Shown here: piece after piece, positions 23,441-54,375 of the stretch
How the letters are laid out: every line of letters begins with the position of its first letter
How positions within the stretch are numbered: the stretch's first letter is position 1
Origin: Steroidobacteraceae bacterium
GTDB lineage: Bacteria; Pseudomonadota; Gammaproteobacteria; Steroidobacterales; Steroidobacteraceae
Direction: 5' to 3'
Length of the DNA stretch: 64,000 bases
NCBI GenBank assembly: GCA_035765415.1
Contig: DASTXR010000159.1
Span: 48 to 64,047, forward strand
Notes under the pieces: model-generated
What the model saw: the letters and a program-made list of their open reading frames with translations, nothing else
The model's database searches: none
What the model was told of the DNA's origin: nothing
Translations under genes and position numbers: made by a program

Positions 23441-23476
23441 GGCGGGCCCTGGGAGCAGCCTGACTCTTGCGGGGGG

Positions 23477-23797: not shown

Positions 23798-23807
23798 GGC
23801 GGCGAGT

Positions 23808-26080: not shown

Positions 26081-26082
26081 CC

Positions 26083-26120: not shown

Positions 26121-26182
26121 CAGAACCGCTTGGAGAAAGTGAGCCCGAAAGTGCGCGGCAGTGTGGTCACCGTGTAGGGCTG
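26083..26182. repeat. 100-bp direct repeat, copy 2
   Basis: See copy 1. Spans the intact TBDR 3' end plus a relic of the DUF1348 start. Confidence 0.85.
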
Positions 26183-28576: not shown

Positions 28577-28666
28577 GTGTTTCCCCGATTTTTTTATTCG
28601 ACGTCGCTTCGACGGCGATTCCCGATGTGGGCGTTAGGGCTGAATAGTATGCCTTCCGCCACGGAA

Positions 28667-35441: not shown

Positions 35442-35454
35442 AGGAGAAGTGCAC

Positions 35455-37164: not shown

Positions 37165-37167
37165 TCC

Positions 37168-37989: not shown

Positions 37990-38298
37990 GAACGGACCCC
38001 ACGAGTCAGAATGAATTGGGATCAGAGTGAGAGAGCAGGACAGGTGCCGCAAACGAACTGCGGGATTCTGCTTACGTGAAAAAAGGTAAACCCTGACGCT
38101 TGCGGGCGACACGCGCGCCTGGAAAAACGCTGGAGCGCCCGCGCCCGGGCGCAAAAAATCCAAAGGTTTACAAGAAACCCCTGCGCGCCACCACATGTGC
38201 CGGAAAATCTCCGCAACCTTAGAACAATCGCGGAGTCGCGCAAAATCGCGATGTGTTTTCCGTCACGCGCGCGCGGTGACGGCATCTGGCGACAAAAA

Positions 38299-39300
38299 TC
38301 AGAATTGCGACGAGCACCTGCTCGGTTCGAGTACGAGAGTGGATGTCACCGCGGCCTCGATGTGCCTGCGAGTGTCGAGCACCGCCTCCTTCAGCGGCGA
38401 CGCCAGCGCGCCGACATCCACGGCCTGCAGCTGCTCGAGCGCGCGCGCGGGGCAGCCGAGATCGAGCAGCGACTGCGCGAGATTGTTGCGCGCGCCAATG
38501 TTGTTAGGATCGAGGCGCAATGCCGCGGCATAGTCGCGCGCCGCGCCCGCGAAATTGCCGGCGCGATACTCCGCCGTGCCGCGCCCGGTCCACGCCACCG
38601 ATTGCGCCGGCCAGCGCTGCACGGCCGCGTCGAACGCCAGGCGCGCATCGGCCGGGCTCGCGCCGCGTTCGAAATCGGCGGCGGCCTGTAGATAGAGCGT
38701 GGGGTCCGCGCTGGCCGGCGTCTCGCCGGGACGCAAGACGACCATCGCCCAGCGGCCACCGTTGTGCCAGGCCACCATGAATGTCCGGGCGCGCCACTCC
38801 TGTCGCCGCTTCTTGCCGGAACGCAGGATGAAGCTGTCGGTGGCCGCGTCGTAGCCGATCACCACGGCGTAATGCCACCTGGGCCAGAACGACAGGCCGT
38901 AGTTGTGCAGCACGAGCACCGGCCGGCCCGCGGCGAGCTCTTCGAGGATGGATTGCAGGTTGCGCGACAGCTCGTAGGAGAGCCGGCCGAACCTTCGCGG
39001 CGCAGCCTGCATCTCCACCTGCAGGCTGCCCTTGCGCGCCGGCAGATAGACGACCGGCACGAGCGCCTCGGGCGTCGTATCCGCGTTCGAAGCGACGAGC
39101 ACCGTGGCCAGCGCGGCGGGTCCGCACTGGTACTTGTCCTGGGGAAAGAATGGCGTGGCGTCGAGCTCGACGCCCTGCTGCGCGCCGGCCGGCAGATGGG
39201 CGGGAATGAACGGCTCGCGCGTGACGCACGCGGACAGCAAGCCTGTGGATGCGAGAAGGAAGGCGAAGCGCGCAGCCCATCCGGCTGCGCGCTTCTTCAT
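38299..39300 (-). CDS. PA2778-family cysteine peptidase lipoprotein with C-terminal TPR
   Basis: Lipobox LLSAC. FPQDKYQCGPAALATVL catalytic-Cys region. HYAVVIGYD. TPR tail. Confidence 0.7.
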   Translation of the reverse strand: MKKRAAGWAARFAFLLASTGLLSACVTREPFIPAHLPAGAQQGVELDATPFFPQDKYQCGPAALATVLVASNADTTPEALVPVVYLPARKGSLQVEMQAAPRRFGRLSYELSRNLQSILEELAAGRPVLVLHNYGLSFWPRWHYAVVIGYDAATDSFILRSGKKRRQEWRARTFMVAWHNGGRWAMVVLRPGETPASADPTLYLQAAADFERGASPADARLAFDAAVQRWPAQSVAWTGRGTAEYRAGNFAGAARDYAAALRLDPNNIGARNNLAQSLLDLGCPARALEQLQAVDVGALASPLKEAVLDTRRHIEAAVTSTLVLEPSRCSSQF

Positions 39301-39325
39301 CGACGATTCCTCTGGCGGAATGGAC

Positions 39326-39706
39326 TCAGGTCTTCTTGAAGATATCGATGACGCCGGTCAGCTCGAGGATGATCAAAACGATGAACACCGCGCCGACGAT
39401 CCAGACGACGTCGCCGCCCGCGGGCGCGTTCTGCATGTCAACCGCGAGCCGGTGGAGTTCCCGATCGTTGAGGCTGGCGATACGCCGATCGACGGCGGCC
39501 GCATCCATGCCCATTTCTTCCATGTGAGCGCGCACTTCGGCGCGATCGAGCTGGCTGCGCACCACGCTCATGTCCGCCGCGCGATCGGTGGCGATCAGCT
39601 CGGCGGTGTCCACGACAGCCGCGGAGGCGGCGCCTGCCATTCCCATGTTCAGGATGGCGACGGAGAGGATGCCGACGGCGAATTTCCGCCACGGTGAATG
39701 ATTCAT
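39326..39706 (-). CDS. PA2779-family small secreted/membrane protein
   Basis: Signal peptide, VRSQLDRAEVRAHMEEMGMDAAAVDRRIASLNDRELHRLA repeat-like helices, C-terminal TM. Sits directly upstream of the PA2778-like gene. Confidence 0.65.
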   Translation of the reverse strand: MNHSPWRKFAVGILSVAILNMGMAGAASAAVVDTAELIATDRAADMSVVRSQLDRAEVRAHMEEMGMDAAAVDRRIASLNDRELHRLAVDMQNAPAGGDVVWIVGAVFIVLIILELTGVIDIFKKT

Positions 39707-39902
39707 GTAAAGAGACCTCCGAAAGTTGAGCAAGCGGGCGGAACATTAGCAAAAGCAGCGGACAGAAATGTAGGACGGCAGGAGAGCGTGACGGAAGTAA
39801 CGTAATCGCCTCCTGTCGCTGGCGTTTGCCGACAGTATTAGGTGGGCGGGCACGATTAGGGCCATAGTCGCGCAAGCTGCAGGTTTCGCCGGGAGGCATG
39901 TC

Positions 39903-42269
39903 GTGTTGCAGCAGTGGGGATCGTTCCGCACGGTTCGCGGACGGTTGCTGTTCTGGACGCTGGCCGTCACCGTGCCCATCTACGCCGGTGCGCTGTACAT
40001 GTCGTACCAGGAGTCGGCGCGAGGCCTCGAGGCCGGCGCGGAGCGCGATGTGGACGAACTCGCGGCGCGGCTGGCCGCCGGCCTCGATGCCGTCATTCGC
40101 CCCATCGAAGGCGGCGTTCGCACGGTGGCCGGACAACTCGAGGAAATCGATCCGCCGCGCGAGCAATACGAAGCCCGCATTCGGGGCATCCTGGCGTCGT
40201 GGCCGGAAGTGTACGGCTCCACCATCGCCACCGAGGTCGACGAAGCAAACAAGGCGAGGCCGTTCGCCCCCTATCTGTTCTGGCGCGACGGCGTCATCGC
40301 GCGGTCCGACCTGGCAACGGACGACTACGGCTACCGCAAACTACCCTGGTACCGGCGCGCCGCCGACGGCCGGCAGCCGGTGTGGTCGCTGCCCTATTTC
40401 GATACCGGCGGCGGCGAAGCGTGGATGGTCACCTACTCCGTGCCCTTCTTCCGGAAACTCGGTGAACGCCGCGTGTTAGGCGGAGTCGTCACCGCCGATC
40501 TCGACCTCAACTGGATGACGGGTGTCGCGGCAAAGGTCTCGCCCGGACCCATCGGCATGGGCTGGCTGGTCTCTCCGGCGGGCACGCACGCTTTCGTCAG
40601 CGCGATCGGCCCCACGCAGAGCCGGCTGCGCGAATTCGATGCATCGCTTCAACCGGATCGCCTGCGCGGCATCGCCGAAGACATGCTCGCCACTCACAAG
40701 ACGTTCATGCGCCTGCCGGAGGGAACGACGGCTCACGCCGCCTATCTCGCCGTACGAAACCTGGACACATTGAATTGGCGATTGATGCTCGTGATCCCGC
40801 GCGCTCAATTGCTTGCCGAAGCGCGCAACCTGCTGAACCGGCAACTTCTGCTGGGCATTGCCGGGCTCGTGCTGCTCATCGTGGCAATTTCCGTGGTCGC
40901 CGCGGGCATCTCGCGTCCGCTGCACGCACTTGCCGAGGCCGTCGGGAAATCCTCCGAAGAGGATCCGGATTTCCAGCTGCACGAAGTTCCGCGACGCGAC
41001 GAGATCGGCGTGCTCGCGCAGGCACTGCGGCGCATGCGCGACTCGCTTCGCAAACACATCGAACTACGTGTTCAGACCATGGCGGACCAGGCACGCGCCG
41101 AACACGAGCTGCAGATCGCCGCGAGCATTCAGCAGTCGATGCTGCCGCGAACCGACTCGCGCGTGCTGGCCGCCACCGTTGCCGCTGCGCTGGTGCCTGC
41201 AAGGCAGGTGGGAGGCGATCTCTATGATTACTACAACGCTCCCGATGGCAACCTGCTGTTCGCCATCGGCGATGTCTCCGACAAGGGCGTCCCCGCGGCA
41301 TTACTCATGGCCAGGTTGTCGACGCTGCTGCGTACGCTCGGCGCGTCCGGCGATGCTCCCGATCGCCTGCTCTTCGGCATCAACGCTCGCCTGGCCGAAG
41401 GCAACGAGGCGTGCATGTTCGTGACACTGGGCTGCGGACAGCTCAATGCGCGAACCGGACAGGTCCGTTACGCAAGCGCGGGGCACGAGCCGCCGCTGCT
41501 GCGGCAACACGACGGAACAGTTAGAGTGCTGGCGACCGAGAACGGACCGGCCCTGGGCATCGACACGGGCGTGGACTACCGGCTGACCGAGGGATTCATG
41601 GCACCCGGCGATACCCTGGTTCTGTACACCGATGGCGTCACCGAAGCGGCCGCAGCCGACGGCTCGCTGTTCGGCATCGATCGCCTGACCGCGCTCCTCG
41701 GTGCAAGCGCGAGTGGCGAACCCGCGTCGCTCGTCCAGCAAATCCTGGACACCGTCAACGCCAGCGGAAGCAGCTTTCACACGGCGGACGACCTGACCGT
41801 TCTGGCGATCAGCCTGAATCCGCCCGACGTGACCGTTCATCGCGAATCCGAGGCCACGAGATGGCGCATCGTGCCGGAGCGCTCGTTCGCCGGCGTACGC
41901 CAGGTTCAGCAGTGGCTGCGCGCCATCCTCGCGTCCCGCGAATTCGCGGCCGATGTCATTGGCGATGTCGAGCTGATCGCCGAAGAACTGTTGACCAACA
42001 TCCTGCGAGCCAACGAAGGCCGGGAAGTGAAAGTGGCTGTCGACTGCGGAATCGTTCGCGGGAACATCCTGTTGACCGCCATCGATGATGGCCTGCCCTT
42101 CAATCCGCTTGCGCGCGAATCACCGCGGCTCGACGCCGATATCGCGGACCGCGAGACCGGCGGACTGGGCATCGAGATCGTTCGCCAGCTCGCCGACCGT
42201 TGCCACTACGCGCACATCGATGGCCGCAACCACCTGGACGTCTTCTTTCAGCGAAGCTCCCCGCAATAA
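39903..42269 (+). CDS. Sensor PP2C (SpoIIE-type) phosphatase: TM/Cache-like sensor - HAMP - PP2C - C-terminal RsbW-like HATPase domain
   Basis: GTG start. PP2C motifs (GGDLYDY, FAIGDVSDKGVPAALLMA, LVLYTDGVTEA). C-terminal ELIAEELLTNILRAN ... ETGGLGIEIV kinase-like fold. Confidence 0.8.
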   Translation: MLQQWGSFRTVRGRLLFWTLAVTVPIYAGALYMSYQESARGLEAGAERDVDELAARLAAGLDAVIRPIEGGVRTVAGQLEEIDPPREQYEARIRGILASWPEVYGSTIATEVDEANKARPFAPYLFWRDGVIARSDLATDDYGYRKLPWYRRAADGRQPVWSLPYFDTGGGEAWMVTYSVPFFRKLGERRVLGGVVTADLDLNWMTGVAAKVSPGPIGMGWLVSPAGTHAFVSAIGPTQSRLREFDASLQPDRLRGIAEDMLATHKTFMRLPEGTTAHAAYLAVRNLDTLNWRLMLVIPRAQLLAEARNLLNRQLLLGIAGLVLLIVAISVVAAGISRPLHALAEAVGKSSEEDPDFQLHEVPRRDEIGVLAQALRRMRDSLRKHIELRVQTMADQARAEHELQIAASIQQSMLPRTDSRVLAATVAAALVPARQVGGDLYDYYNAPDGNLLFAIGDVSDKGVPAALLMARLSTLLRTLGASGDAPDRLLFGINARLAEGNEACMFVTLGCGQLNARTGQVRYASAGHEPPLLRQHDGTVRVLATENGPALGIDTGVDYRLTEGFMAPGDTLVLYTDGVTEAAAADGSLFGIDRLTALLGASASGEPASLVQQILDTVNASGSSFHTADDLTVLAISLNPPDVTVHRESEATRWRIVPERSFAGVRQVQQWLRAILASREFAADVIGDVELIAEELLTNILRANEGREVKVAVDCGIVRGNILLTAIDDGLPFNPLARESPRLDADIADRETGGLGIEIVRQLADRCHYAHIDGRNHLDVFFQRSSPQ

Positions 42270-42281
42270 CGAGGTGCCGAT

Positions 42282-42650
42282 ATGTCTCTCAAGATCGAGT
42301 CCGACGCATCGAACACGCCGACCATCAAACTCGGCGGACGCCTCGACAGCGAAACCGCTCCCAGCCTCGATCGCGCGCTCGATCCGCTGCTCGCGAATAC
42401 GTCGCTGCAGCGCATGGTCTTCGATCTCGGTGACCTCGAGTACCTGAGCAGCGCCGGCATCCGGTGCTTCATCCGCGCACGCAAGGCCATCGAACCTCGT
42501 GGCGGCAAGGTGGCCGTCATCAACCCGCAACCCGCGGTGCGCAAGGTGCTGGAGATCGTGAAAGCGATTCCTGGCGGCGTCTTCCGGAATGTCACGGAGC
42601 TCGACGCGTATCTCGACGAAATGCAGCGGAAGGTGCGGGAGCAGGAATAA
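42282..42650 (+). CDS. STAS-domain anti-sigma-factor antagonist
   Basis: 122 aa. DLGDLEYLSSAGIRCF carries the phosphorylatable Ser context. Confidence 0.8.
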   Translation: MSLKIESDASNTPTIKLGGRLDSETAPSLDRALDPLLANTSLQRMVFDLGDLEYLSSAGIRCFIRARKAIEPRGGKVAVINPQPAVRKVLEIVKAIPGGVFRNVTELDAYLDEMQRKVREQE

Positions 42651-42656
42651 GCCGCG

Positions 42657-45600
42657 CTAAGACGCGGCGCGCAGGCGACTCTGTTCTGCTTCGCTGCGCC
42701 AGCGAAGCGCGTCGTCGACGAGATTCACGATCTCGGGCCGCGCCGCCAGAGTTGCGCCTTGACCATAGATGAGTTGCAACAAACGTTCCCCGGCGCGCAC
42801 CGCCATCGATGCCTCACCGAGCACATGGTAAGCACAGCCGATGGTATGAACGATGTTGTCGTCGCGAACCTTGTTGATGCCTTCCGGGTGCAGGCACTGC
42901 GTCAGGAAAATCAGGTCGTGACTTCGAAAGGACTCGTGCAACTGGGTGTAGTCGTTTCGAACTTCCAGGAAAAGCGTGGCCGCGTAGACGACGTTGTTGA
43001 TGCGCCGCTCCGCCTCCAGCTTCAGGAAAACTTCCGATTCCGGATCAGTCGGAGGCAGGCTCCTGCCAAAAGGAAGGTTGTCGTACACGATGCGAAACGC
43101 CTGGCGCACGACATCCAGGTATTCAAGCACTTTCGCGTCGCTGGGCGCCGCAGTGCCAAATTCTTTCCTGAGTTTCCTGGCCTTGTCGAACAAGGGCGAT
43201 GCGCGCCGACGACACATCGTGCTTCGCACCCAATGGCCCGGAAGGTCATTCAACATTCCGTCCGAATCGAGGAGATCGGTTGCGGCCTGAAGCTCACTTT
43301 GTGCAAGTTCACCGGCGAGCTGATCGCCCCTTTCCGCCAGCTCTGAATAGACGACGTGTAATCTGAAATGCGTGGTCGCGGCTTTCGGATAGTCCCTGGT
43401 CAGCGATTCATATTGAGTGACGAGAGAACGCAACCGTTGCTCCGTATCTCTTGGATCCGCCGCGACCAATGCCTCCAGCAGGCGTGCGTAGCAACCCTCC
43501 ATGCGCAGCATGAAATCGGCAGGCGACGGCACCTCATGTTGGCCCTGGCGCAGCTTGTCCAGGGCCCGGTCGAAAAACCTGGCTGCGCGCCGAAATGCGC
43601 GCCGATGCGCGGGATCGACGCCCAACTGCGTAGGCCCTGCCACGGAAGACAGGATGTCGAGACCGCTCACTGCATCCGCGAGCGCGTGCGGGATCTTCAG
43701 TTCTTTCGCAATGATTTCCTTGCTTCGAATGCTGGGCCAGATCGGCGCGTATACGACTTCCCAATGCAGATAAAGATTTTGCTGGCCAACGAGTTTTTCG
43801 AGCTCACCGGCGATGAGGCGGCCGATCTGATCGTGGGAACCCTTCAATTGCAGGTGCAACTCCCGCGCAAAATGGCGCGCCGGTTCCGGAACCATGTCGG
43901 TGATGACGCGACGCGCCTCCAGGCTGAACGCACCCGAAGTCGGGTGCGCGTATGCGTCGCCGGCGTCCGATTCGTGTTCGAGAATGTAGCCGATGATTTC
44001 CATCGACATGACGCGCCGGGGGATTTCGTCCGGCCCCATCTTCTCGCGAAGGCGCACCAGCACCTCGCACAGACTCTTGTGCCAGCCGCGAATCAGCGTC
44101 GGCAGTTCCGGGGTCCGCCAGCCCAATCGACATCGCACTGCGGCGAGCCCGTACGCCAGCATCTGCGAAAGAGAACGTGCCGCGTTGAAGGTATCGCCTT
44201 TGTCGATACAGATCTTGTTGGCTGACTTCAGCAGATCGATTCCCTGATCGAGAAGGGCGTCATGACCCATCTCTTCCGGCGCGACATTCAGGATGAACTC
44301 GAGAATCTGCGCAGCCTTCTCCATGGGCACGCGCGGGTCGGCGGTGTCACTTCGCACGACCAGGTGCGAGTTCACCGACGTGAACCGCGTCCGCGCAGCG
44401 CGCACCTTGTCGGATTCGCCGTCGATACCGCCCAGCCGCCTCACCTGCGCGAGAAGCAGGTTCGCTTCCTGTATCGTCGAAGCGTCGTCCCTGGATGAAG
44501 CGAGCAAGGCCACATCCGCCGCACTGCGTGCGTAGATCCGCGCGAGATCCCACCGGGTCCGGCACGCATGCAACAGCGCCCAGGCCAGATAGCGTTCGGC
44601 GGTTTTGCCCTTGAGATTCCCGAGCAGTTCTTCCAGGTTGTCGCAGGTGCCGACTGATTCGCGGACTTTCGTGGAGGCGAAATTGACCGGACCTGGCGCT
44701 CCGGCGATCAGGGGACGGACGGTGGCCATCGGCAGCGTTGGGTGCCGTTCGATGAGTGCGTCAATATGCGCATCGAACTGCTCGCGTCCGTGCGCCTGGC
44801 CAAGCGAATAGGTCTTGTATCCAAACGTCTGCACGCACCCAGCGACCTCATCACGAATGACTTTCTCGAACGCTTCGTCATTCGCAAACCATTGCAGGAG
44901 CTGTTCGACGTCAACGCTCTGCGTTGCCTCGAGGTCCCGTGGCATCGTCCCGGCCTCTGCGCGCAGGTCGAGCGCAAAACTCGCTCGCTCGAAATCGTGC
45001 AGGGCGTTGACGAAGATTTTCCGGGCCTCTTCGACTTCGGCGCCGCGATCGTCGGTCTCCCGAGGTCCGGCGCGCAGTTGCCGGTCGAACGTGTCGAGCG
45101 CAACCGCAAGCGTCGCCATGATCTCTTCTGACACGCGTGGTACGGAGGCGGGAAGCAACAACATCCGCGGATGTCTCAGAAAATCCACGTCGTCGAGGCC
45201 TTTTGCCTTGAGCGCATCGGAGTTGCGGGTGGTTCGGATGAGCGACATCACGCGGGTCACGAGCACGACGCGCACGTGATCTTTCTTCAGGCGCCGCAGC
45301 CCCTTCGAGAGGACATCCATGCAGGCCATTGCCTCGGCATCGATGCGATTCGAATTCGTCGAACGATCTCTGCGCTCGTCGCTGGCCTCTATGAAGTCGT
45401 ACCACCGGCCGATGTGCTCTTCCGTGGGACGCAACGCGCGCAGGGTCTGCGCCTCTTCGCGGGTAAACGAGAGTTTTTCCCACGCGTACTCGCTCAACCC
45501 GGAAAGATCGCTGCGCTCCAGCAGATCCTTGATCCTGGATCGGGGCGTCGATGGCGCCTTGCGCAGCATGACGATGAGCGCCGGCGCATAACCTTCGAGT

Positions 45601-46106
45601 AGTTGGAGAGTCTTCTGGCGGGACTCGGGAGACGCCTGTTTCCCGAGCTTTCGCTCCTGAATAAGCTGCAATGCCAGCGGATTGCGACGCAGCTTCTGGT
45701 ACTGCTTCTTCGCCTCCACCAGAAGCGAGAGTTTTTGCTCCTGGTAGTGAGCTGCGTGGTAGGTGATCTGGTCCTGGAGTTCATCGGCGTGCGATGGAAG
45801 CAGGCCCACCTGCTTGTCTCCGTCGAACAGCAATCGATGCAGGATCTGATCACTCTTGAGTTTGAAGTCAGCCTCCGAGGGCACGCCGCGATCGGCGCGC
45901 TCCGCCTCGAACAGGAAGCCGCTCAAACTATCGGGTTTGTCCGGCGCGATGAAGGAGTCGAGGTCATGCGCGTCGACGAAGTAGACCAGCTGCGAGTTGG
46001 GATGAGCCGACTTGAAATGCCAGTCGTCGCGGAACTGCCGCAAGAGATGACTGAGGATCGCCGCTTCTCTGCGCAATTTCGCGGGTTCGGGGCGGGCAAT
46101 AGACAT
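42657..46106 (-). CDS. 1149-aa all-helical hypothetical protein with possible PIN-like N-terminal ~330 aa and long TPR-like/helical-repeat C-terminus
   Basis: Long clean ORF, last gene of a tight operon. Acidic motifs are spaced as in PIN-like folds: LVYFVDAHDL, LLPSHADELQDQI, NRIDAEAMACMDVL, VRVVLVTRV. Confidence 0.6.
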   Translation of the reverse strand: MSIARPEPAKLRREAAILSHLLRQFRDDWHFKSAHPNSQLVYFVDAHDLDSFIAPDKPDSLSGFLFEAERADRGVPSEADFKLKSDQILHRLLFDGDKQVGLLPSHADELQDQITYHAAHYQEQKLSLLVEAKKQYQKLRRNPLALQLIQERKLGKQASPESRQKTLQLLEGYAPALIVMLRKAPSTPRSRIKDLLERSDLSGLSEYAWEKLSFTREEAQTLRALRPTEEHIGRWYDFIEASDERRDRSTNSNRIDAEAMACMDVLSKGLRRLKKDHVRVVLVTRVMSLIRTTRNSDALKAKGLDDVDFLRHPRMLLLPASVPRVSEEIMATLAVALDTFDRQLRAGPRETDDRGAEVEEARKIFVNALHDFERASFALDLRAEAGTMPRDLEATQSVDVEQLLQWFANDEAFEKVIRDEVAGCVQTFGYKTYSLGQAHGREQFDAHIDALIERHPTLPMATVRPLIAGAPGPVNFASTKVRESVGTCDNLEELLGNLKGKTAERYLAWALLHACRTRWDLARIYARSAADVALLASSRDDASTIQEANLLLAQVRRLGGIDGESDKVRAARTRFTSVNSHLVVRSDTADPRVPMEKAAQILEFILNVAPEEMGHDALLDQGIDLLKSANKICIDKGDTFNAARSLSQMLAYGLAAVRCRLGWRTPELPTLIRGWHKSLCEVLVRLREKMGPDEIPRRVMSMEIIGYILEHESDAGDAYAHPTSGAFSLEARRVITDMVPEPARHFARELHLQLKGSHDQIGRLIAGELEKLVGQQNLYLHWEVVYAPIWPSIRSKEIIAKELKIPHALADAVSGLDILSSVAGPTQLGVDPAHRRAFRRAARFFDRALDKLRQGQHEVPSPADFMLRMEGCYARLLEALVAADPRDTEQRLRSLVTQYESLTRDYPKAATTHFRLHVVYSELAERGDQLAGELAQSELQAATDLLDSDGMLNDLPGHWVRSTMCRRRASPLFDKARKLRKEFGTAAPSDAKVLEYLDVVRQAFRIVYDNLPFGRSLPPTDPESEVFLKLEAERRINNVVYAATLFLEVRNDYTQLHESFRSHDLIFLTQCLHPEGINKVRDDNIVHTIGCAYHVLGEASMAVRAGERLLQLIYGQGATLAARPEIVNLVDDALRWRSEAEQSRLRAAS

Positions 46107-46133
46107 GGGAACCTGGTGATTGTTATGAGTGCT

Positions 46134-47789
46134 TCACGCCGCGATTCGCAGTTCCGCCTGGCGTCGCTGCTGGAGCAGTGCAATGAAGTTGTCCGCCTCG
46201 GAAGAGGCACTCTGTCCGCTCGTCGAGAAGTCGACCTTGAACGCCCGTTGCCCGCGCAGCGTCGCCGAGTCGCGGAGGATCAGCCTCTTCAGTATTTGCC
46301 CGGACTCGCTCCGCGGATCGACAGGCACCTGGGCATGATAGGCATCGGCAAGATCACCGGCCTGGAGCAGCGCGCGACCCGGCGACAACACGAACCCCAG
46401 ATCATCGTTCCCGCGCAAGCGAATGGCGCCGTAGTCGCGATTCGCGAATGACGCAACAAATCGTTCACCAGCAGCCTTGCAAACGAGGTTGGGCAATATC
46501 GCCGCCAGTGTTTGCATGCGATCCGTGGTGAACGCCGCCGCGAGATTGCGCATGAGAGAACGCTCCTCGATCGATTCGTCGGCGACGACATCTGAACCGG
46601 AGCCATACAGAGAGCTGGCAACCTCTTCCATCAACTGACGCCCCGACACCATGTCTCCACGAACTGTCGCGGGCAGCAGCGCCGTGAGGTCCCGTTCGCG
46701 TGTTTCCGATCTGTTCAACAGGACATAAGAAACGAGCGCCGCGCGCTCAGCATCGTCGGTGGAACTGGGTCGCGCGAATCTCGCAATGGAGCGCAACACG
46801 ATCTTCCGTGCGTCACCTGCGATTTGCGCATTGAAGCCGGGACGTGTGACTGCCGTAAGCAACGGCTCGAGCGATTCACTGGACCCGCATACGGCGGCAC
46901 AGGCGACCAAAGAGGTGAACCGCGAGGCCTGCTGCAGGACATCGCGCTCGGCAAGACATTCAGCGATACGGCGCCTGACCTGGCGCGTGCGTTCGCCGTC
47001 GACTGGGCGAGCTGCCAGCGCAGCCGCAGGCAGCAGAATCTGTTCAGGGCCGGAGACCGAAAAGCCGTTGCCATTCAAGAGATGGCCTAACAAGGTCTCC
47101 GCGGGTTCGAGCTCGTTGGATTCATTGGCCTTGGCGGCAATGCTCTGGAGACTCTCGGTCCAATCGCGCTGCCAGTCCTCCACAGCCCGTGGCGAGATCC
47201 ATCCGCGCGAAGGAATTTCCACCTTCGGCGCCAGAACGTTATCCATTTTCGCCTGCAGCGCGGAGAGCTGACGGCGGAAGGTGTCGTGTTCGGGCGATTC
47301 CTCCGCCAGCGCGAGCGCGGTGCGCGCTGCACGCATGAGCCTGGGAATCGTGCGCGTCAGCGCATCGGTTTCGTCGGGCTCGTTCGTGGAAGACAGCTTC
47401 GTGAGTGCGCTTTGCGCAGACGCAAGCGCGACGTTGAAATGCTTCTCGACGTTGGGCCCGGCCAGGCGAGGTTCGTCGGCCAACTTGTCCTTCGAGACGA
47501 GACGGAAATCGGCCTCCACCGCCTCCCGGAGCTCATCGCGAAAACGAAACCGGTTGGGCTGCCCTCCACGCCGACCGGTAGCCACGGATTCGAGATGGTC
47601 GAAATATTTCGACTGACGGTCGATCACACCCTGGACGGTGCCAAGCTTGACGCCGGAGAACGCCGCCAGCTCTGCGACGGTGAATTCACGCAATGCCAGC
47701 GCGGCGCTGAGGACACGGGCTTTGGCGGGAAGGAGAGAACGTTTGCTCATGGCTGATCCACGAGCCGAACGTATGCCTTTGTGATTCAT
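46134..47789 (-). CDS. 551-aa hypothetical protein with N-terminal winged-HTH
   Basis: LALREFTVAELAAFSGVKLGTVQGVIDR reads as an HTH; the rest is unassignable. The ATG lies 3 nt after the upstream stop (an alternative ATG is at 47750). Confidence 0.6.
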   Translation of the reverse strand: MNHKGIRSARGSAMSKRSLLPAKARVLSAALALREFTVAELAAFSGVKLGTVQGVIDRQSKYFDHLESVATGRRGGQPNRFRFRDELREAVEADFRLVSKDKLADEPRLAGPNVEKHFNVALASAQSALTKLSSTNEPDETDALTRTIPRLMRAARTALALAEESPEHDTFRRQLSALQAKMDNVLAPKVEIPSRGWISPRAVEDWQRDWTESLQSIAAKANESNELEPAETLLGHLLNGNGFSVSGPEQILLPAAALAARPVDGERTRQVRRRIAECLAERDVLQQASRFTSLVACAAVCGSSESLEPLLTAVTRPGFNAQIAGDARKIVLRSIARFARPSSTDDAERAALVSYVLLNRSETRERDLTALLPATVRGDMVSGRQLMEEVASSLYGSGSDVVADESIEERSLMRNLAAAFTTDRMQTLAAILPNLVCKAAGERFVASFANRDYGAIRLRGNDDLGFVLSPGRALLQAGDLADAYHAQVPVDPRSESGQILKRLILRDSATLRGQRAFKVDFSTSGQSASSEADNFIALLQQRRQAELRIAA

Positions 47790-47792
47790 TTG

Positions 47793-49070
47793 TCAAATGA
47801 ATTGTGAATCAACATTCGCCCACCTGGTATCAAGCTCCTTGATCCAAGCTGTTGTTTGTATTGGGCTAAACATCAAGTCGTGCAGGTCATTGGAGAACAC
47901 ACGGCTGCCTTTGTCCGATGCCGCGAAGGCGCTCAGGGCGTCGAGCGCGAGGACGATCTGGGACGCCTCGTCCCTCGTCGGATCCCGCCGCTGAATACAT
48001 CGCGAGAGGCGAACGAGCAGCTTGAGCGCCAAGTCGTAATCCTTCCCGGCGACTATTCGCAGCCGGAAGAAGCTCAACGCGTTCTGCGCCGCCAGTTGTC
48101 CTTGCTCCCAGGTCGTTTCGGGCGAGCCGCGGCCTGGCTCGTCGGTCTTGTAGCGCCATTTCCTGAAATCGCTCATCGCCTTGCTGACGTGGCTCGCGTG
48201 CTCATTGAAGAGTGCCGGCCGCTTTGCCCCGCGTGGAATGTGCTCGCCACGCACGACGATGGCGTCGAGCAACAATGACGCCACCTCATCCATCCACCCT
48301 TCGTAGAAGGGGCAGTCCCGCTCGCATGACGTTCTCTTGACCCCTATGCGCCCCTGGAACGCGTGACACACCAGTTCGTGCGCAATGACATAGGGGATGC
48401 TCAGGAGCGCGCGCCGCTCGAACGACCTTCCATCGAGCTCCAGCGTGACCTTTGACAGACGCCTGCCGGGATGAGGATCGTCATCGAAGTCCGTGAACCC
48501 ACCTACCGCACCCAGGTAGCGGTCCTTGCTTCTCGTCCCTTTCGGATCGCCGCCAACAAAATGCCGTTTGAACTGGACGTCGATCGGCTGATGGACGGCG
48601 GAATCGTCCAGTCCCCACGTCTCGTGGATAGCCTCGATCTGCTCACGAATGTATCCGTAACACTTGTTGATCACTTCGATGCAGAGGCCACGGCTCTCGA
48701 GAAGCTGCGAGTCATACAGGTAAGCGTCCTTGCACGGCTTCAGGCCGCCACCCGCGCACTTCTTGCACAGCTTGTTCGCGACGCGCGCGCGGAGCTGCGC
48801 GAAGAAACGATCGAAAATCGCCACTTCCGTCTGCGATCTCATCAACGAGCGCACCGGCACGACGCGCTCCAGTTGCTGCTGAATGAGCGCCTGAACGGTG
48901 ACGTCGGCAGATTCGAACTCGCCCTCGGCCCCGGAAACGTCCAGGAATGCGCTGCGAACCCTTTCGGCGATTCGCTCTTCTGCCTCGGCGCTTCTGGTCC
49001 CCGGCCGGGGACGCAGCTCCTCGATGGCGATGAGCCGCAGAACGAGTCGCTTGTGATCCGGGAGCGGCAT
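47793..49070 (-). CDS. Putative HExxH zinc metallopeptidase with N-terminal Cys cluster
   Basis: GGAG Shine-Dalgarno. VIAHELVCHAFQG followed 24 aa later by FYEGWMDE (possible third ligand). CKKCAGGGLKPC...C...C cluster. Confidence 0.6.
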   Translation of the reverse strand: MPLPDHKRLVLRLIAIEELRPRPGTRSAEAEERIAERVRSAFLDVSGAEGEFESADVTVQALIQQQLERVVPVRSLMRSQTEVAIFDRFFAQLRARVANKLCKKCAGGGLKPCKDAYLYDSQLLESRGLCIEVINKCYGYIREQIEAIHETWGLDDSAVHQPIDVQFKRHFVGGDPKGTRSKDRYLGAVGGFTDFDDDPHPGRRLSKVTLELDGRSFERRALLSIPYVIAHELVCHAFQGRIGVKRTSCERDCPFYEGWMDEVASLLLDAIVVRGEHIPRGAKRPALFNEHASHVSKAMSDFRKWRYKTDEPGRGSPETTWEQGQLAAQNALSFFRLRIVAGKDYDLALKLLVRLSRCIQRRDPTRDEASQIVLALDALSAFAASDKGSRVFSNDLHDLMFSPIQTTAWIKELDTRWANVDSQFI

Positions 49071-49089
49071 GGTGGCTCCGATTGACTAA

Positions 49090-49431
49090 CTACCGCCTGC
49101 GAACAGCGCCTCTGCCGTACTTGCGTTCCAGCCAGGGAAGCACGATGCGGTCCCAGATGTCGGTGGCCATCTTGACACTGAGTTTTGCCGCCCCGGTGCC
49201 GAGCGCAATCAGGATGGCGGCGGTTACGGGGTCCACGCCCTGCGATCCCTTCGTTTTGAATGGAACCTCGCCGGCCGGGATCTGTTCACGCCGAACGGTC
49301 TCCTGGAGCCAGGCATCGGACTCGAGCCCCTCCTTCCATGCCTTCTCCAGATCTTCCCGGAGTTTCGTTTCGGTCACATCGGCGGGAACCAGGAGTTCGT
49401 AATTGAAGATATCGCCGTCCACCTTGTTCAT
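49090..49431 (-). CDS. 113-aa small protein, EACC1-like layout (acidic/amphipathic N-part, Gly/Ala-rich hydrophobic helix, basic tail)
   Basis: First gene of the operon. DPVTAAILIALGTGAAKLSVKMATDIWDRIVLPWLERK. Confidence 0.5.
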   Translation of the reverse strand: MNKVDGDIFNYELLVPADVTETKLREDLEKAWKEGLESDAWLQETVRREQIPAGEVPFKTKGSQGVDPVTAAILIALGTGAAKLSVKMATDIWDRIVLPWLERKYGRGAVRRR

Positions 49432-49861
49432 ATGATTGTTCTCGGCCTATCTAATGGATTCTTGTTTGATCGATCCTTGAATCGATGCTACCCCGCGCGC
49501 GAAGACGCGTGCAATCGCCCTCACCGGCTTGTTAGCTGTTGCACGCTCCCGAAACCGGCGACCGCAATGCACAACCGCCGCCAGCCGGGCGCTCCCGTAT
49601 ACATCTGTCGCGAGTCGATGGGTTGTTTCGAATTTCGCGGACTATTTCGCCGGGGACGCGCACCGCCCTGGAGCATGCATTGAAGTTCATGCGAGTAGCC
49701 CTGAGCGGCGCCTGCAGTAGAGAGGAGGTATGGTGTTACCCGCATCGCCTCGAGCGCTTCGCCGATCGCCCGGTCATCGTCACCACTGACAGGGATGTTG
49801 CAACTTTCCGGCGATCCGTCGCGTCTGATGTTTCGCACCGCAACGTGATTCCGGGAAACTC

Positions 49862-50857
49862 ATGAATCCACGCCTTCGCGCCGTGGCCTTTTGCCTGTTC
49901 GCTGCCTGCTGCTCCGTCGCTTTCGGACAGGCTGGCAAATTCCGCGAGGCCGCCGAATCGATCAACCAGACCATTCGCGCCAATCACTACCGCCCCGCCG
50001 AACTCGACAGCAACGCGTATCGGCTCATCGAAGCGGATGTGCTCGCGCTCGGCGAGAAATCCACCTCGGCCAGCGAGTTCATGAACGGCTTCAACGCGCT
50101 CTGGCGCAACGGACCCTTTTCCCATGTAGCACTGCGAAAGGCGGAGGAGTCGGCAGCGGATCGAATCCAGCGAATCGACACCGAGCCTGCCGGCAAAGGC
50201 GCGGTGGCGCTCACGTGGAACGGATCCGCCGCCATCCTGACGGTCACGACGATGAACGGCGCCGACACCATCGAGGCGATCGACGCCGCCTATGTGGAGA
50301 TCGTCGCGCGCAAGGCTCAAAAACTGATCATCGATCTGCGGCGCAACGGAGGTGGTGCATTTGCCGTGGTGCCCCTGGTCGGACATCTCATCGACAAACC
50401 CTTCGATGCCGGCGTCTTCGTCGTCGGGACGTGGTATGCGAATCATCAGCAACCGCCCGGGCGCGACGATCTTGCATCCGCCACGCCGTGGCGCGGATAT
50501 TCGGTGAAAGCCTTCCAGGCCGATGTGCTGACGCGACCGCTGACTAGCTATCGCATCGATCCGTTGAAGCCTCGCTTCGAGGGCCCGGTCGTCGTGCTCA
50601 CCAGCAGCCGCTCGTTCAGCGCCGCGGAAATCGCCGCCGACGCGTTGAAGTCGACGGGCCTTGCCAGGATCGTCGGCGAAAAGACCCCGGGCGCCGTGTT
50701 GTCGTCGAAGCTGTTCGATATCCCGGGCGGCTTTCATCTGCGTGTGCCGATCGCCGACTACTACTCCATCAAAGGTGGGCGCCTGGAAGGCGTTGGCGTG
50801 ACACCGGACATCCCCGCCAGCGCCGAACAATCGCTCGCGGTCGCGCTTGGGCTGTAG
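49862..50857 (+). CDS. S41-family (C-terminal-processing-type) serine peptidase, secreted
   Basis: Signal peptide. LIIDLRRNGGG. SSRSFSAAEIAADAL catalytic Ser region. Confidence 0.75.
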   Translation: MNPRLRAVAFCLFAACCSVAFGQAGKFREAAESINQTIRANHYRPAELDSNAYRLIEADVLALGEKSTSASEFMNGFNALWRNGPFSHVALRKAEESAADRIQRIDTEPAGKGAVALTWNGSAAILTVTTMNGADTIEAIDAAYVEIVARKAQKLIIDLRRNGGGAFAVVPLVGHLIDKPFDAGVFVVGTWYANHQQPPGRDDLASATPWRGYSVKAFQADVLTRPLTSYRIDPLKPRFEGPVVVLTSSRSFSAAEIAADALKSTGLARIVGEKTPGAVLSSKLFDIPGGFHLRVPIADYYSIKGGRLEGVGVTPDIPASAEQSLAVALGL

Positions 50858-50962
50858 TTTTCCGCGCTCGTGAGCGGCCTGCCCGCGCTGGTTCGAAAGG
50901 AATCGGCCGGGAGAAAACCGCGCTCTAAGGTGTGAGCCTCGTCAAACACCCAGGAGCAGTCC

Positions 50963-51778
50963 ATGCGCAAGTCCACCAGTTTTCTCACGCTCGCCTGTCT
51001 CGCGGCCGCGGGCACGTTCGCGGCCTCCGATCGGGAACACGAGACGCTCGCCCGTGCACGCCAGCTGCAAATGCAATTCCGCGAGGGGAACCTGCAGGTT
51101 GTTGGGCCGCTCGTGAAGGACCTCGAGTCCGCGGTCGCGCGATCTCCCGGCAATGCCGACCTGTGGGAAGCTCTCGGCAATGCCTACATGTCGCAGCAAG
51201 GGTCCATGTATGCGTCGAAGCCGGATCCGGCCGCGTTGATTGCCGTGGGCACACGCGCGCGCGACGCCTATGCGCGCGCGCTCGCCATGGACCCCGAGAA
51301 CGCATTGCTGATGGCCAGTCATGGAATGGCGGGAATGTCGATCGCCAGTCTCGGGCAGGATGGGCCAGGCCTCATGAGCTCGGTCGAGGAAATGAACGCC
51401 GCCGTGCGCCGGGCGCCCAATTCCACGCCGGTACGGTTGACGCGCGGGTTCACGATCATTCACCTTCCCGTCGCCATGCGCGACACCACAGCAGTGACGG
51501 ACGATTTGAAGTTCGTGCTGCAGACCGCGCCCGGCGGGCGCCCCGAGGATGTCCTGCACGTGCTGCTCGGAGACGTGTACGCCGAAACCGGCGCGCTCGA
51601 AGACGCGCGTCGCGAATATGCACAGGTGAGCGGCGCCTCCCGTTTCGCGGCGGATCAGGCGAAGTCGCGGCTGGTCGATCTCGAGAAAGGCGCGGTGCCG
51701 CCCGCCTCCATCCGCATGGTGCGCTCGGGCACGGGCACCCGGTGCGCGATGTGTCACACGCCCGGCTCCGACAGCTGA
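50963..51778 (+). CDS. Secreted TPR-like hypothetical protein
   Basis: Signal peptide. Helical repeats (ADLWEALGNAYMSQ, ARDAYARALAMDPEN). The stop lies 1 nt before the kinase start. Confidence 0.55.
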   Translation: MRKSTSFLTLACLAAAGTFAASDREHETLARARQLQMQFREGNLQVVGPLVKDLESAVARSPGNADLWEALGNAYMSQQGSMYASKPDPAALIAVGTRARDAYARALAMDPENALLMASHGMAGMSIASLGQDGPGLMSSVEEMNAAVRRAPNSTPVRLTRGFTIIHLPVAMRDTTAVTDDLKFVLQTAPGGRPEDVLHVLLGDVYAETGALEDARREYAQVSGASRFAADQAKSRLVDLEKGAVPPASIRMVRSGTGTRCAMCHTPGSDS

Positions 51779-51779
51779 C

Positions 51780-53624
51780 ATGCCCATCGATCTCAACCAT
51801 GCCGCGTTTCACGCCATCGGATTTGCAGCGAGTGCCGCGCTCTGTGCACTGCTGTGGATCATGCAGCGTCGCGTCGATCGAACTACCGGCGGACCCAGTG
51901 GATACCAGATCCTCTGGGCCGTCGGTTTCGTCTGGACGCTCGGCAACTTCCTGCGGTACTCGCTGCTGCTGGCAGGCGTGAGCGCGGCCGCCACGAGCTT
52001 CCGCCTTGCCGGGATGCTGGCATGGAGCAGCACGATACTGGGGCCGATGGCGATCGGCCGATTTCTTCAGGCGGGGATCGGGACCACGAGTCGAGTGTCG
52101 CGCGCGATCCTGATGTTCAGCGGCGCAGTCTCACTGGTGAATTTCGGCCTGATGACCTACGCGGCAGCAACCCACTCGCTCGATCTCGACGCAAGCTGGT
52201 ATCCGAAGACATCGTTCTACCTCGCGCTGGTCGTGACCGCCATTGCGCTGATTCTCTATCGGATGCTTCGCCATGAACCCGATTCGGCAGCCAGGCCATC
52301 GAAGCCTCGCTGGTTCGGCCGCGGCGTCTTCCTGCTCGCCGCGGTGCAGGTGACGGCCACACTGCTCAGCATGCAGGACTCGTGGTTGCCTGCCGAATCG
52401 CGCGACGCCGTGGGTCTCATCAGCAAACACTGGGCAATCCCCTGGTCGATACTCATCGCCGTTTCGCTGGCGCAGATTCACCACGCCGATCTCGTGCTCA
52501 AGCGAAGCCTGTGGCTGCTCGCCAGCATGGCGACCGCGGCCCTGGCCACCGTGTTCGTATTTGAGCCCGCGCCAGGATTGGCGATGGTCGCGTCCACTCT
52601 CTTGTGCGCGGCCCTGCTGCTAGGCGCACCACTGCTCATCCGCGCGCTGAATTTTCTCGTCGACCGTATATTTCTGCATCGCCCCGACTACCGCGTGGCA
52701 GCGCGAACCTTCGAAGAGGCGGTACGCCGTATCTACGACCAGGAACAGCTCTTCGATACCGCCGTGCAGACGGTGCGATCCGCGCTGCACCTCGAGGCCC
52801 GGTTCGTTGCAGCCCCGGCGGTCGCGCTCGCCTCCATCTCGATCGAGACCGCGAACCTCCCGGGGCTTCGCCTCGAAGTCTCGGCCAGCCACCATGCGCG
52901 TACGCTGATGCAGCAGGAATTCGAATTCCTGAATGCCATCGGCGCGCACGTGGGTCGCCGGCTGGACGCCATTCACTTTGAAAAGGAGCAGCGCGCGCAC
53001 CACCTGCGCGAGGAGAAACTCAAACGCCTGTTGACCGAGGCTGAGCTGAAGGCGCTGCGTACCCAGGTCGATCCGCATTTCCTGTTCAATACGCTGAACA
53101 CCATCGCGGACCTGGTCAGCTCCAATCCGCAACAGGCCGAAGGCATGATCGAACGGCTCGCCGAATGTTTCCGCTACGCGCTGACCAGGCATTCCCGCGA
53201 CCTGTCGACGTTGGACGACGAGCTCGAATTCGCCCGGCACTACCTCGAGATCGAACGCGTGAGATTCGGTGAACGGCTGCGCATCGAACTGTCGCGCGGC
53301 AACGCGCGCGGAACCGAACCCGTGCCTTCGCTGCTGCTCCAGCCGCTGCTCGAGAACGCCATCCGGCACGGGCTCTCGCCCATGCGTGAAGGCGGCTCCA
53401 TCCGGGTCGTAGCGCATCTCGAGGGCGACTACCTGCGCCTGCAGATCGATGACGATGGCGTTGGTCTGCGGGCGGATTTCGCCGAGAAACCGGGAGTCGG
53501 GCTGCAGAATGTGAAAGAGCGTTTGCATACCCTGTACTCCAGGGCTGCCAGCCTGGGCGTTGGCAGCCGTCCGGGCGAACGCGGGACCTCCGTAACCATC
53601 CTGGTGCCGCTGCATGGAAATTAG
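51780..53624 (+). CDS. LytS/YehU-type sensor histidine kinase with polytopic N-terminal sensor
   Basis: QVDPHFLFNTLNTIADLV (His_kinase PF06580-type H box). LLLQPLLENAIRHG N box. About 7 TM helices. Confidence 0.85.
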   Translation: MPIDLNHAAFHAIGFAASAALCALLWIMQRRVDRTTGGPSGYQILWAVGFVWTLGNFLRYSLLLAGVSAAATSFRLAGMLAWSSTILGPMAIGRFLQAGIGTTSRVSRAILMFSGAVSLVNFGLMTYAAATHSLDLDASWYPKTSFYLALVVTAIALILYRMLRHEPDSAARPSKPRWFGRGVFLLAAVQVTATLLSMQDSWLPAESRDAVGLISKHWAIPWSILIAVSLAQIHHADLVLKRSLWLLASMATAALATVFVFEPAPGLAMVASTLLCAALLLGAPLLIRALNFLVDRIFLHRPDYRVAARTFEEAVRRIYDQEQLFDTAVQTVRSALHLEARFVAAPAVALASISIETANLPGLRLEVSASHHARTLMQQEFEFLNAIGAHVGRRLDAIHFEKEQRAHHLREEKLKRLLTEAELKALRTQVDPHFLFNTLNTIADLVSSNPQQAEGMIERLAECFRYALTRHSRDLSTLDDELEFARHYLEIERVRFGERLRIELSRGNARGTEPVPSLLLQPLLENAIRHGLSPMREGGSIRVVAHLEGDYLRLQIDDDGVGLRADFAEKPGVGLQNVKERLHTLYSRAASLGVGSRPGERGTSVTILVPLHGN

Positions 53625-54375
53625 AGCGCTGATTGCCGACGACGAGGCCTCGGCGAGATCACGCCTGCGCAAACTTCTCGCGGCGCATCCCGGCATCGTG
53701 GTCGAAGCCGATGCTCACGATGGCGTGGCAACCCTGGAAGCAATCCGCAAACATCGTCCCGCGGTCGTGTTCCTCGACGTGCAGATGCCGGGACTCAATG
53801 GCTTCGAAGTCATCCAGGCATTGACGCCGGAAGAGCTGCCGCTGGTCGTCTTCGTGACCGCTTACGACGAATACGCCCTGGCGGCCTTCGAAGCCAACGC
53901 CGTGGCATACCTGCTCAAGCCCGTGGAGCGTTCACGCCTGCAGGCGGTCGTGCAACGGCTCGAGCAGATCGCCCGCACGCCGGGCGAAGCATCGCAGGAG
54001 CAGGTCCGCACGCAGGTCGTTGCGCGGTCCCGGCCCCAGCCGCTGCATCATGTGCTGGCACTGCAGCGGGACGGCTACCTGCTGATTCCATTGGCCGACG
54101 TGTGTTTCTTTCGCGTCGAAGACGGCGTCACGCGCGTGAAAACCGCCACCGCGGTGTATCGCACGCACTACGCGATCGGCGACCTCGAATCCCGATTGCC
54201 GAGTCCGCCGTTCTTCCGCGCCCACCGCTCCGTCATCGCCAACCTCGACATGGTGGCGACGATCAGCCCGATGTTCAAAGGCTCGCTGCAGCTCACGATG
54301 AAGGACGCGGCGGGCAGCGAAATCCAGGTCAGCGAACGGCAAGCGAAGGCCGTGCGGGAGATTTTGCAGATCTGA
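53614..54375 (+). CDS. LytTR-family response regulator
   Basis: The receiver domain (ALIADDE...VFLDVQMPGLNGFE) is followed by a LytTR DNA-binding domain. Overlaps the kinase stop. Confidence 0.85.
   Translation: MEIRALIADDEASARSRLRKLLAAHPGIVVEADAHDGVATLEAIRKHRPAVVFLDVQMPGLNGFEVIQALTPEELPLVVFVTAYDEYALAAFEANAVAYLLKPVERSRLQAVVQRLEQIARTPGEASQEQVRTQVVARSRPQPLHHVLALQRDGYLLIPLADVCFFRVEDGVTRVKTATAVYRTHYAIGDLESRLPSPPFFRAHRSVIANLDMVATISPMFKGSLQLTMKDAAGSEIQVSERQAKAVREILQI

Follow-up and report, generated by a model that had tools for sequence, protein, structure and literature searches.

A rare gene block encoding a predicted metallopeptidase in a Steroidobacteraceae genome: a candidate protease-gated conflict module

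A compact block of four genes, here called A, B, C and D, was analysed in a stretch of 64,000 nucleotides from a Steroidobacteraceae bacterium (contig DASTXR010000159.1 of assembly GCA_035765415.1, positions 48–64,047), the whole of which is referred to below as the window. The block may represent a previously unannotated, horizontally spread module, A–B–C(–D), which acts as a protease-gated conflict system of the defence or abortive-infection-like kind, a reading that we hold with slightly less than even confidence. It is carried by the position of A beside B, by the invariant residues of B and their predicted topology, by the constant layout of A, by the division of C into a constant and a variable part and by a strict rule that links the presence of D to the length of C. 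The four genes, each of which starts with ATG, are as follows.

49090–49431, minus strand: gene A, encoding a small protein of 113 aa
47793–49070, minus strand: gene B, encoding a predicted gluzincin-like metallopeptidase of 425 aa, the universal core of the module
46134–47789, minus strand: gene C, encoding a protein of 551 aa
42657–46106, minus strand: gene D, encoding a protein of 1149 aa

The gaps between the genes are 19 nt (A/B), 3 nt (B/C) and 27 nt (C/D), a leader of 430 bp precedes gene A and the stop codon of gene D lies 6 bp from the end of a convergent STAS gene, all in agreement with the compact operon described in an initial annotation of the same DNA. In the annotation of the source metagenome-assembled genome (MAG), all four products are labelled 'hypothetical protein'.

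The order A–B–C recurs in ~40 independent loci from gamma-, beta- and alphaproteobacterial genomes, soil metagenomes and one plasmid, and the block is therefore not a chance pattern of open reading frames (ORFs). Homologues of D form only eight clusters among 5.8 billion proteins, and every one with enough surrounding contig shows the order A/B/C/D. B has eight close clusters, and P0018, with 20% identity, lies within a block of proteins of 138, 403, 525 and 1136 aa. When 185,579 species-representative genomes were scanned with a profile of B, ten loci were found, in Steroidobacteraceae, Burkholderiaceae, alpha- and gammaproteobacterial MAGs and the isolates Rhizobium mayense CCGE526 and Fertoeibacter niger RG-N-1a; the B-profile scan also gave 24 loci from metagenomes, mostly from soil. 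A scan of the same species-representative genomes with a pattern of D gave no relative, and a comparison of the gamma-type B with plasmids gave no match. One copy, at L012:9869–14807 in a gammaproteobacterial MAG, is a decaying A–B–C–D block in which B, C and D are present only as frameshifted fragments. The module is very rare and patchy, which we interpret as a population signature like that of conflict systems.

Annotation of the loci with hidden Markov models (HMMs) built from confirmed blocks revealed how the module is put together. The order A–B–C is universal. D is present exactly when C is long (513–556 aa, with full HMM coverage), and it is absent where C matches just the first ~180 residues of the C model, which gives a three-gene A–B–C form; such three-gene versions are carried by the cultured R. 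mayense CCGE526 and F. niger RG-N-1a and by a conjugative plasmid of Rhizobium sp. 007. The core is A–B–C, and D together with the C-terminal domain of C is an optional, co-inherited pair; as D is found only with a long C, a physical interaction between C and D is suggested. The four families do co-occur as a block in other genomes, although D is not universal. In one Steroidobacteraceae clade (L011, L013, L015, L021 and L025) the module is reduced to a pair, an N-terminally truncated B and a short C, with neither A nor D, and in two of these loci (L015 and L025) the second motif His of B is replaced by Asn. These pairs are read as relics or as repurposed pairs.

Searches against known families gave no annotation for any component. 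At E ≤ 1, A, B, C and D have no match in Pfam, NCBIfam or PADLOC, and the models of named defence systems in PADLOC-DB v2.0 match none of the four at the same threshold; the initial annotation had likewise recognized no named defence system and no P-loop NTPase, and no canonical Walker A motif was seen when the four sequences were read by eye. Sequence searches of the PDB with profiles of B (8 and 120 sequences), C, D and the N-terminal part of D returned nothing or helical-bundle noise. The literature was searched for EGWMD, HELVCH and HExxCH and for the block itself, and nothing relevant and no description was found. All four families are un-annotated in every library searched.

The family of B is much larger than the module. 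In an exhaustive profile search of 1.84 billion representatives, it comprised 770 clusters (50% identity), 503 of them at E ≤ 1e-10, and of the 150 matches listed almost every one is an unfused, stand-alone protein of ~400 aa. In alignments of 120–139 diverse members (~20% identity), at least 90% conservation was found for C102, C105, C113, C130, H231, E232, H236, E257, G258, W259, M260, D261, R306 and S356, and C235 is the majority residue at its position. Two of the conserved stretches form the candidate active site, located here on the AlphaFold2 (AF2) model.

48363–48380, minus strand: motif H231-E-L-V-C-H236 (HExxxH) of B, on the predicted active-site helix 219–239
48288–48302, minus strand: motif E257-G-W-M-D261 (ExxxD) of B, on helix 254–274, 21 residues after H236

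The initial annotation had described B as an HExxH metallopeptidase. The motif HELVCH (residues 231–236) is indeed present and conserved in homologues, but it is not the canonical zincin HExxH; it is a six-residue HExxxH that resembles the M49 variant, and B is read as a peptidase from the spacing of its motifs and its predicted topology, not from a family match. In a gluzincin core, a sheet is combined with an active-site helix and, ~20 residues downstream, a 'glutamate helix' that bears ExxxD. In thermolysin, for example, H146 is followed by E166 within E-x-x-x-D170, neprilysin and ACE also carry ExxxD, and DPP III (M49) has the longer HExxxH. B has a Glu of the third-ligand type downstream of its His motif, in E257-x3-D261, and in the AF2 model [predicted local distance difference test (pLDDT) score 73.7, predicted template-modelling (pTM) score 0.65] strands 163–172, 189–197 and 204–213 are followed by helices 219–239 and 254–274. 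This predicted order of secondary-structure elements fits the gluzincin layout.

A Foldseek search with the model of B gave nothing at E ≤ 0.001; the best relevant matches, all non-significant, were 4fgm (an M1-like aminopeptidase, probability 0.57), 7qfy and 3csk, the relevant types being M1-like, M36 and DPP III. Comparison of 120 members with Pfam pointed to no consistent family, with isolated sub-threshold matches that include WLM, M48 and M13, and B has no match to the Pfam models for Peptidase_M78/ImmA-IrrE, M56 or caspases. The motifs and predicted topology make it probable that B is a divergent metallopeptidase of the gluzincin type and stands for an un-annotated family.

In every complete locus the gene for protein A lies immediately 5′ of B, and the layout of the protein is constant in 23 members. 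An N-terminal module of ~50 residues with an invariant W32 is followed by a linker with P57 and G65, and the C-terminal half contains a hydrophobic segment (residues 68–86) rich in Gly, Ala, Ser and Thr and then an amphipathic helix with an invariant W93. The hydrophobic segment is conserved, ten of its 19 residues are small and charges frequently lie at its edges. The two parts also differ in charge: 19 of 21 members have an acidic N-terminal part (mean −4.3), and in 19 of 21 the C-terminal part carries the more positive charge.

The initial annotation had described A as EACC1-like. The definition of EACC1 is a 5′ gene paired with a gene for a caspase-type peptidase, whose product has one conserved transmembrane (TM) helix with a central patch of small residues (PMC7159879), and in experiments KrEACC1 proved to be a pro-toxin of ~114 aa that is cut near residue 49, freeing a pore-forming C-terminal fragment (bioRxiv 10.1101/2025.11.14.688446). 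The Pfam EACC1 model (PF19953) matched neither A at E ≤ 1 nor any of five members of the A family at E ≤ 10, while KrEACC1, used as a positive control, scored 28.2 bits against a cutoff of 23.6; alignment of the A profile to KrEACC1 with hhalign gave a probability of 0.07. A is therefore rejected as a member of the EACC1 family. What is left of the comparison is an analogy of size (113 versus 114 aa), gene position and charge and hydrophobicity layout, with Kyte–Doolittle (KD) values of 1.54 and 1.71 for the hydrophobic helices of A and KrEACC1, respectively, and by this analogy A could work like an EACC1 protein without being one.

Protein C combines a constant and a variable part.

47505–47717, minus strand: winged helix–turn–helix (wHTH)-like N-terminal region of C (~residues 25–95), with sub-threshold HTH matches, no other part of C being conserved throughout the clades
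46260–46982, minus strand: C-terminal domain of C (~residues 270–510), found by HMM coverage only in loci that also encode D

By BLAST, just the N-terminal 80–190 residues of C are common to all clades and the C-terminal part is clade-specific. In different members, the N-terminus (consensus 'FTxxELAxxxGVKxxTV') gave sub-threshold matches to HTH_23 (E of 0.086–0.4) and, in one member, to Sigma70_r4_2 (E of 7.7e-4), with matches to HTH_17, GntR and Crp-type models in others. There is also a weak alignment of this region with the TFE winged helix from archaea (E of 1.5), and there is no match of C to the XRE model. The winged HTH proposed for C in the initial annotation is plausible on this weak signal, although no family is matched; the remainder of C is helical.

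Protein D is called with 970 aa in the NCBI record (P0001, 84% coverage), which drops ~179 N-terminal residues including the conserved FVDAHDL and GLLPSH..E; homologues support the start that gives 1149 aa. The AF2 model of D (pLDDT 74.6, pTM 0.70) contains two regions that are relevant here.

45147–46004, minus strand: N-terminal alpha/beta domain of D (~residues 35–320), with invariant polar residues and no PDB or Pfam match
42684–44609, minus strand: C-terminal alpha-superhelix of D (~residues 500–1141, ~650 residues), like that of tetratricopeptide-repeat (TPR) proteins, found with Foldseek

The N-terminal domain has strands 39–44, 99–102, 201–203, 278–283 and 310–311, alternating with helices, and its motif VDAHD (residues 44–48) is present and conserved in homologues, as had been noted. 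Invariant in seven sequences, down to 29% identity, are D45, H47, E69, K84, H106, E109, R191, S249, N253, R254, D256, T284, R311, H312 and R314, and this density of invariant polar residues suggests that the domain is an enzyme. A PIN-like N-terminus had been considered possible. Four positions would be compatible with a PIN-like layout, with D45 at the end of strand 1, E109 after strand 2, D256 at a helix start and T284 at the end of strand 4; however, the expected fourth acidic residue is Arg or His, and the N-terminal domain has no Pfam match and its profile no sequence match in the PDB. The PIN-like reading was not confirmed and is retained as a lead only. Readings as a HAD, receiver or Toprim domain were rejected, since by our reasoning the positions of the motifs do not fit.

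Foldseek searches with the full model of D against the PDB and a viral library were dominated by the TPR region. The C-terminal part matches Ski3, TPR subunits of APC/C, OGT and IFIT1 with probabilities of 0.97–1.0 and E values of 5e-4 to 3e-2, and it also matches viral TPR/Sel1 proteins; the Pfam TPR models do not match D. A TPR superhelix is a common type of sensor scaffold.

Taken together, the adjacency of A and B, the invariants of B within a gluzincin-like topology, the layout of A, the constant and variable parts of C, the rule relating long C to D and the TPR region of D make a protease-gated conflict module the best-supported synthesis. We infer the catalysis, substrates, trigger and phenotype of the module as follows. 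The TPR region of D, presumably a sensor of a ligand or of an invader, would detect a trigger and activate B, a task that in three-gene forms would fall to the variable part of C. By analogy with EACC1 modules and with modules of Pepco, another protease-activated pore-forming effector family, B would then cleave A in the P57–G65 linker, freeing a membrane-active fragment; A would be a latent effector or substrate, with its acidic N-terminal part masking the hydrophobic and amphipathic C-terminal part. In addition or instead, B may cleave C and thereby change transcription. The constant wHTH module of C may serve DNA binding or autoregulation while the variable C-terminal domain would dock D, and the N-terminal domain of D may be a second enzymatic effector, possibly a PIN-like nuclease.

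A more specific form of this proposal is doubtful in our view: that the module founds a new protease-gated abortive-infection class built from undescribed families, in which a TPR sensor, by way of a modular HTH adaptor, licenses a stand-alone gluzincin-like HExxxH peptidase to cut a small acidic-capped protein unrelated to EACC1, Pepco or gasdermin and so to free a membrane-permeabilizing fragment, with a second, nuclease-like effector domain carried on the sensor in the four-gene form.

The neighbourhoods of the homologous loci vary between clades and their flanks are not conserved. In L007, a complete Lamassu/ABC-3C system and an HNH protein lie directly upstream; in L009, C is followed at once by a tyrosine integrase, and upstream there is a MORC-like GHKL ATPase. 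Domains of a Tn3 transposase and a resolvase were found among the scanned neighbours and were assigned, by size and sequence reading, to ORFs of 991 and 192 aa in L016, where an HTH_36 protein was also confirmed. An AbiEii match among the neighbours was assigned by sequence reading to a protein of 312 aa in L017, ~5 kb upstream, and the product of L017:8073–8633 (R. mayense CCGE526), encoded divergently from A, gave a sub-threshold Trypco2/Pepco match (20.5 bits versus a cutoff of 24.2). A Tn3 fragment is present on the P0017 contig, RadC on the P0004 contig, and DUF3800, a Tle1-like lipase and two nucleases among the neighbours of L001. The three-gene copy of Rhizobium sp. 007 (L043, NZ_CP064191.1 26487–45608), on a 441-kb conjugative plasmid, is flanked by an ISKra4 transposase, an ImmA/IrrE–HTH pair and a multiubiquitin–ThiF (ubiquitin-like conjugation) module, the latter two within 7 kb. 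The idea that such blocks sit in defence islands or mobile contexts is thus borne out in L007, L009, L016, L017 and L043, but many neighbourhoods, including that in the window, are ordinary, and defence-island surroundings are seen in only some loci.

Two further observations on the neighbours can be recorded. PADLOC matches to Septu (PtuA/PtuB), a ThsB-like TIR protein and Csa3 occur among the 113 flanking proteins of the L001–L042 set taken as a whole. A protein of ~530 aa without a Pfam match is encoded just upstream of the three-gene modules at L009:4583–6193 and L010:7506–9077, the two copies being 57% identical.

In the window itself, the GC content of the block is 0.608 versus 0.643 in the rest of the window, a value equally low in just 2.6% of equal-sized segments, and GC at third codon positions (GC3) is 0.70–0.75 versus a window mean of 0.805 (Mann–Whitney p = 0.002). 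The stretch 47760–47900, which the initial annotation had picked out as A/T-rich, has a GC content of 0.44. The composition of the block is modestly distinct from that of the rest of the window, and the horizontal acquisition read from it earlier is supported to the extent that the block is mildly foreign in character. tRNA genes in the window and att-like direct repeats flanking the block were looked for and none were found. The ends of the block are marked by two features.

49432–49861, minus strand: leader of 430 bp with a GC content of 0.591, which separates gene A from the divergent S41-peptidase gene
42651–42668, minus strand: terminator-like GC hairpin over the stop codon of D, common to the convergent STAS gene, a pattern match only

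No Rfam element was found in the leader. It contains an ATCGAT-N6-ATCGAT dyad at ~−52 relative to the ATG of gene A; when a conserved operator dyad was sought in the leaders across loci, the dyads were short, non-homologous and at chance level.

The convergent STAS gene (42282–42650) was confirmed with Pfam. Together with the preceding gene it forms a pair of the partner-switching type adjoining the operon (39903–42650), a 788-aa fusion of dCache/HAMP, SpoIIE phosphatase and HATPase_c_2 domains followed by the STAS protein. The cluster at 35005–39733 encodes an OmpA-domain protein (719 aa), an fn3-containing protein, a Peptidase_C39-like protein with TPR and a DUF6627 protein, and beyond the leader an S41 peptidase, a TPR protein and a LytS-type histidine kinase with a LytTR response regulator are encoded at 49862–54375. 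Elsewhere in the window, a second stretch of lower GC content (0.58–0.63) extends over 19000–30000, with several low-GC3 ORFs (for example 19184–19825 and 22252–23142) and two long ORFs with atypical codon-position GC (20672–22201 and 24533–26080), and may be another acquired region.

Several points weigh against a conflict module. A, B, C and D have no statistically significant homology to any known peptidase, toxin, nuclease or defence family, membership of A in the EACC1 family was rejected, and the hydrophobic segment of A, with 19-residue KD averages of 1.3–2.1 and charged residues often present, is borderline for a TM helix. The models of B and D are of only moderate confidence, with pLDDT about 74. 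The gamma-type B has no match among phage genomes. The block in the window is flanked by signalling genes (SpoIIE/STAS, S41 peptidase and LytS/LytTR), and most of the 113 scanned neighbours are ordinary [efflux pumps, methyl-accepting chemotaxis proteins (MCPs), LysR and metabolism]. The reduced B–C pair occupies a conserved housekeeping context in the chromosome in L011, L013, L015 and L021, where the flanks were scanned: L011, L013 and L021 have a PAS-MCP gene upstream, L015 and L021 have glmS downstream, and AcrB or glmS is nearby.

The main rival explanation, which can coexist with the protease-gated conflict module, is a protease–repressor switch in which stress would cause B to cleave the HTH protein C, with a resulting change in the transcription of the operon itself or of genes elsewhere, following the logic of CapP/CapH, ImmA/ImmR, IrrE/DdrO and BlaR1/BlaI. 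A would then be a membrane tether and D a TPR sensor, both acting as modulators and not as effectors. In its favour, no locus has B and C apart, conservation of C across all loci is limited to the HTH-like N-terminus and the reduced clade has kept just B and C in a stable chromosomal context. There is precedent as well, since pairs of a metallopeptidase and an HTH protein are an established regulatory design linked to defence loci (CapH/CapP preprint, 10.1101/2022.04.27.489752). Nevertheless, we consider it unlikely that such a switch is the whole explanation. B lacks a match to Peptidase_M78/ImmA-IrrE or M56, C greatly exceeds such repressors in size and has a sub-threshold HTH signal, no constant cargo operon adjoins the module and the leaders share no conserved operator. 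The loss of the second motif His of B in L015 and L025 points to decay rather than to a working switch, and the retention of A in every complete locus is left unexplained.

A function outside conflict that was acquired horizontally, such as envelope or protein quality control or a signalling accessory in which the peptidase processes a membrane-associated small protein, appears improbable. It would suit the signalling and envelope genes around the block in the window (SpoIIE/HATPase–STAS, S41 peptidase, TPR, LytS/LytTR and OmpA), the ordinary genes that make up most neighbours across loci and the vertical inheritance of the reduced form in one clade. However, it accords poorly with the extreme rarity of the module (10 of 185,579 species), with flanks that differ between clades and show no tie to a specific pathway, and with the known defence systems and mobile genes that recur beside complete copies and the existence of decayed ones. 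Least probable of all is an addiction module of mobile elements resembling toxin–antitoxin (TA) systems, with A or the N-terminal domain of D as a restrained toxin for post-segregational killing: the patchy distribution, the copy on a conjugative plasmid, the transposases or integrases adjoining some copies, the GC content below that of the host and the known pseudogenized copy would agree with it, but the cost of four large genes (6.8 kb) would be unusual for such a module, none of the components has a match among known TA families, many chromosomal copies have no obvious mobile element nearby and the window has no tRNA, flanking repeats or nearby integrase. The addiction and housekeeping readings are both less likely than the protease-gated conflict module and the protease–repressor switch.

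Focusing on its organizational logic, the module resembles known protease-effector modules, and one of the closest comparisons is with the EACC1–caspase system (Kaur et al., 2020, PMC7159879; Evans et al., 2025, bioRxiv 10.1101/2025.11.14.688446). In both, a protein of ~113 aa is encoded directly 5′ of a peptidase gene, and A shares an acidic N-terminal part, a more basic C-terminal part and a hydrophobic helix rich in small residues with EACC1, while the peptidase component is tied to variable sensor-like modules. However, A lacks the C-terminal beta-strand region of EACC1 and has no sequence relation to it. Its partner B is a zincin-like metallopeptidase by prediction, not a caspase, and is a stand-alone protein of ~400 aa that is never fused to sensors, the sensor-like parts here being the separate proteins C and D. 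The hosts also differ: Proteobacteria for the present module and mainly multicellular actinobacteria or cyanobacteria for EACC1.

With the gluzincins (thermolysin M4, neprilysin M13 and M1 aminopeptidases), B shares, in its predicted structure, a His-Glu...His motif on a helix after a small beta-sheet and an invariant Glu in ExxxD on the next helix, about 20 residues downstream, and with DPP III (M49) it shares the HExxxH that is longer by one residue. B differs from both in having no significant sequence or fold match, in the majority Cys within its motif (HExxCH), the N-terminal four-Cys cluster and the unique EGWMD, and in its unrelated N- and C-terminal helical domains. As in CapP/CapH, ImmA/ImmR, IrrE/DdrO and BlaR1/BlaI, the gene for a predicted metallopeptidase adjoins that for an HTH protein, and some copies lie near mobile or defence loci. 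In contrast to these pairs, B has no M78 or M56 match and there is no XRE match, C is a protein of 300–650 aa with large extra domains instead of a small repressor, and the module has the partners A and D and no adjacent regulated cargo operon. The C-terminal ~650 residues of D share the TPR-like superhelix fold of IFIT proteins and Ski3; the TPR arms of Avs/STAND proteins, which are not among the Foldseek matches, are a further example of TPR sensors. D differs from TPR sensors in that it has no NTPase domain, its TPR region is missed by the Pfam TPR models and this region is fused to an uncharacterized N-terminal alpha/beta domain.

In conclusion, if the proposed mechanism is true, a metallopeptidase-driven branch would be added to the protease-effector logic of caspase- and trypsin-linked modules, together with a new family of small effectors and a second new family, of peptidases, whose ~770 clusters are un-annotated in databases. 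The strict rule that C is long if and only if D is present provides a ready-made case of modular sensor exchange, and with its cultured three-gene hosts, defined candidate catalytic residues and putative cleavage linker, the module can be tested directly.

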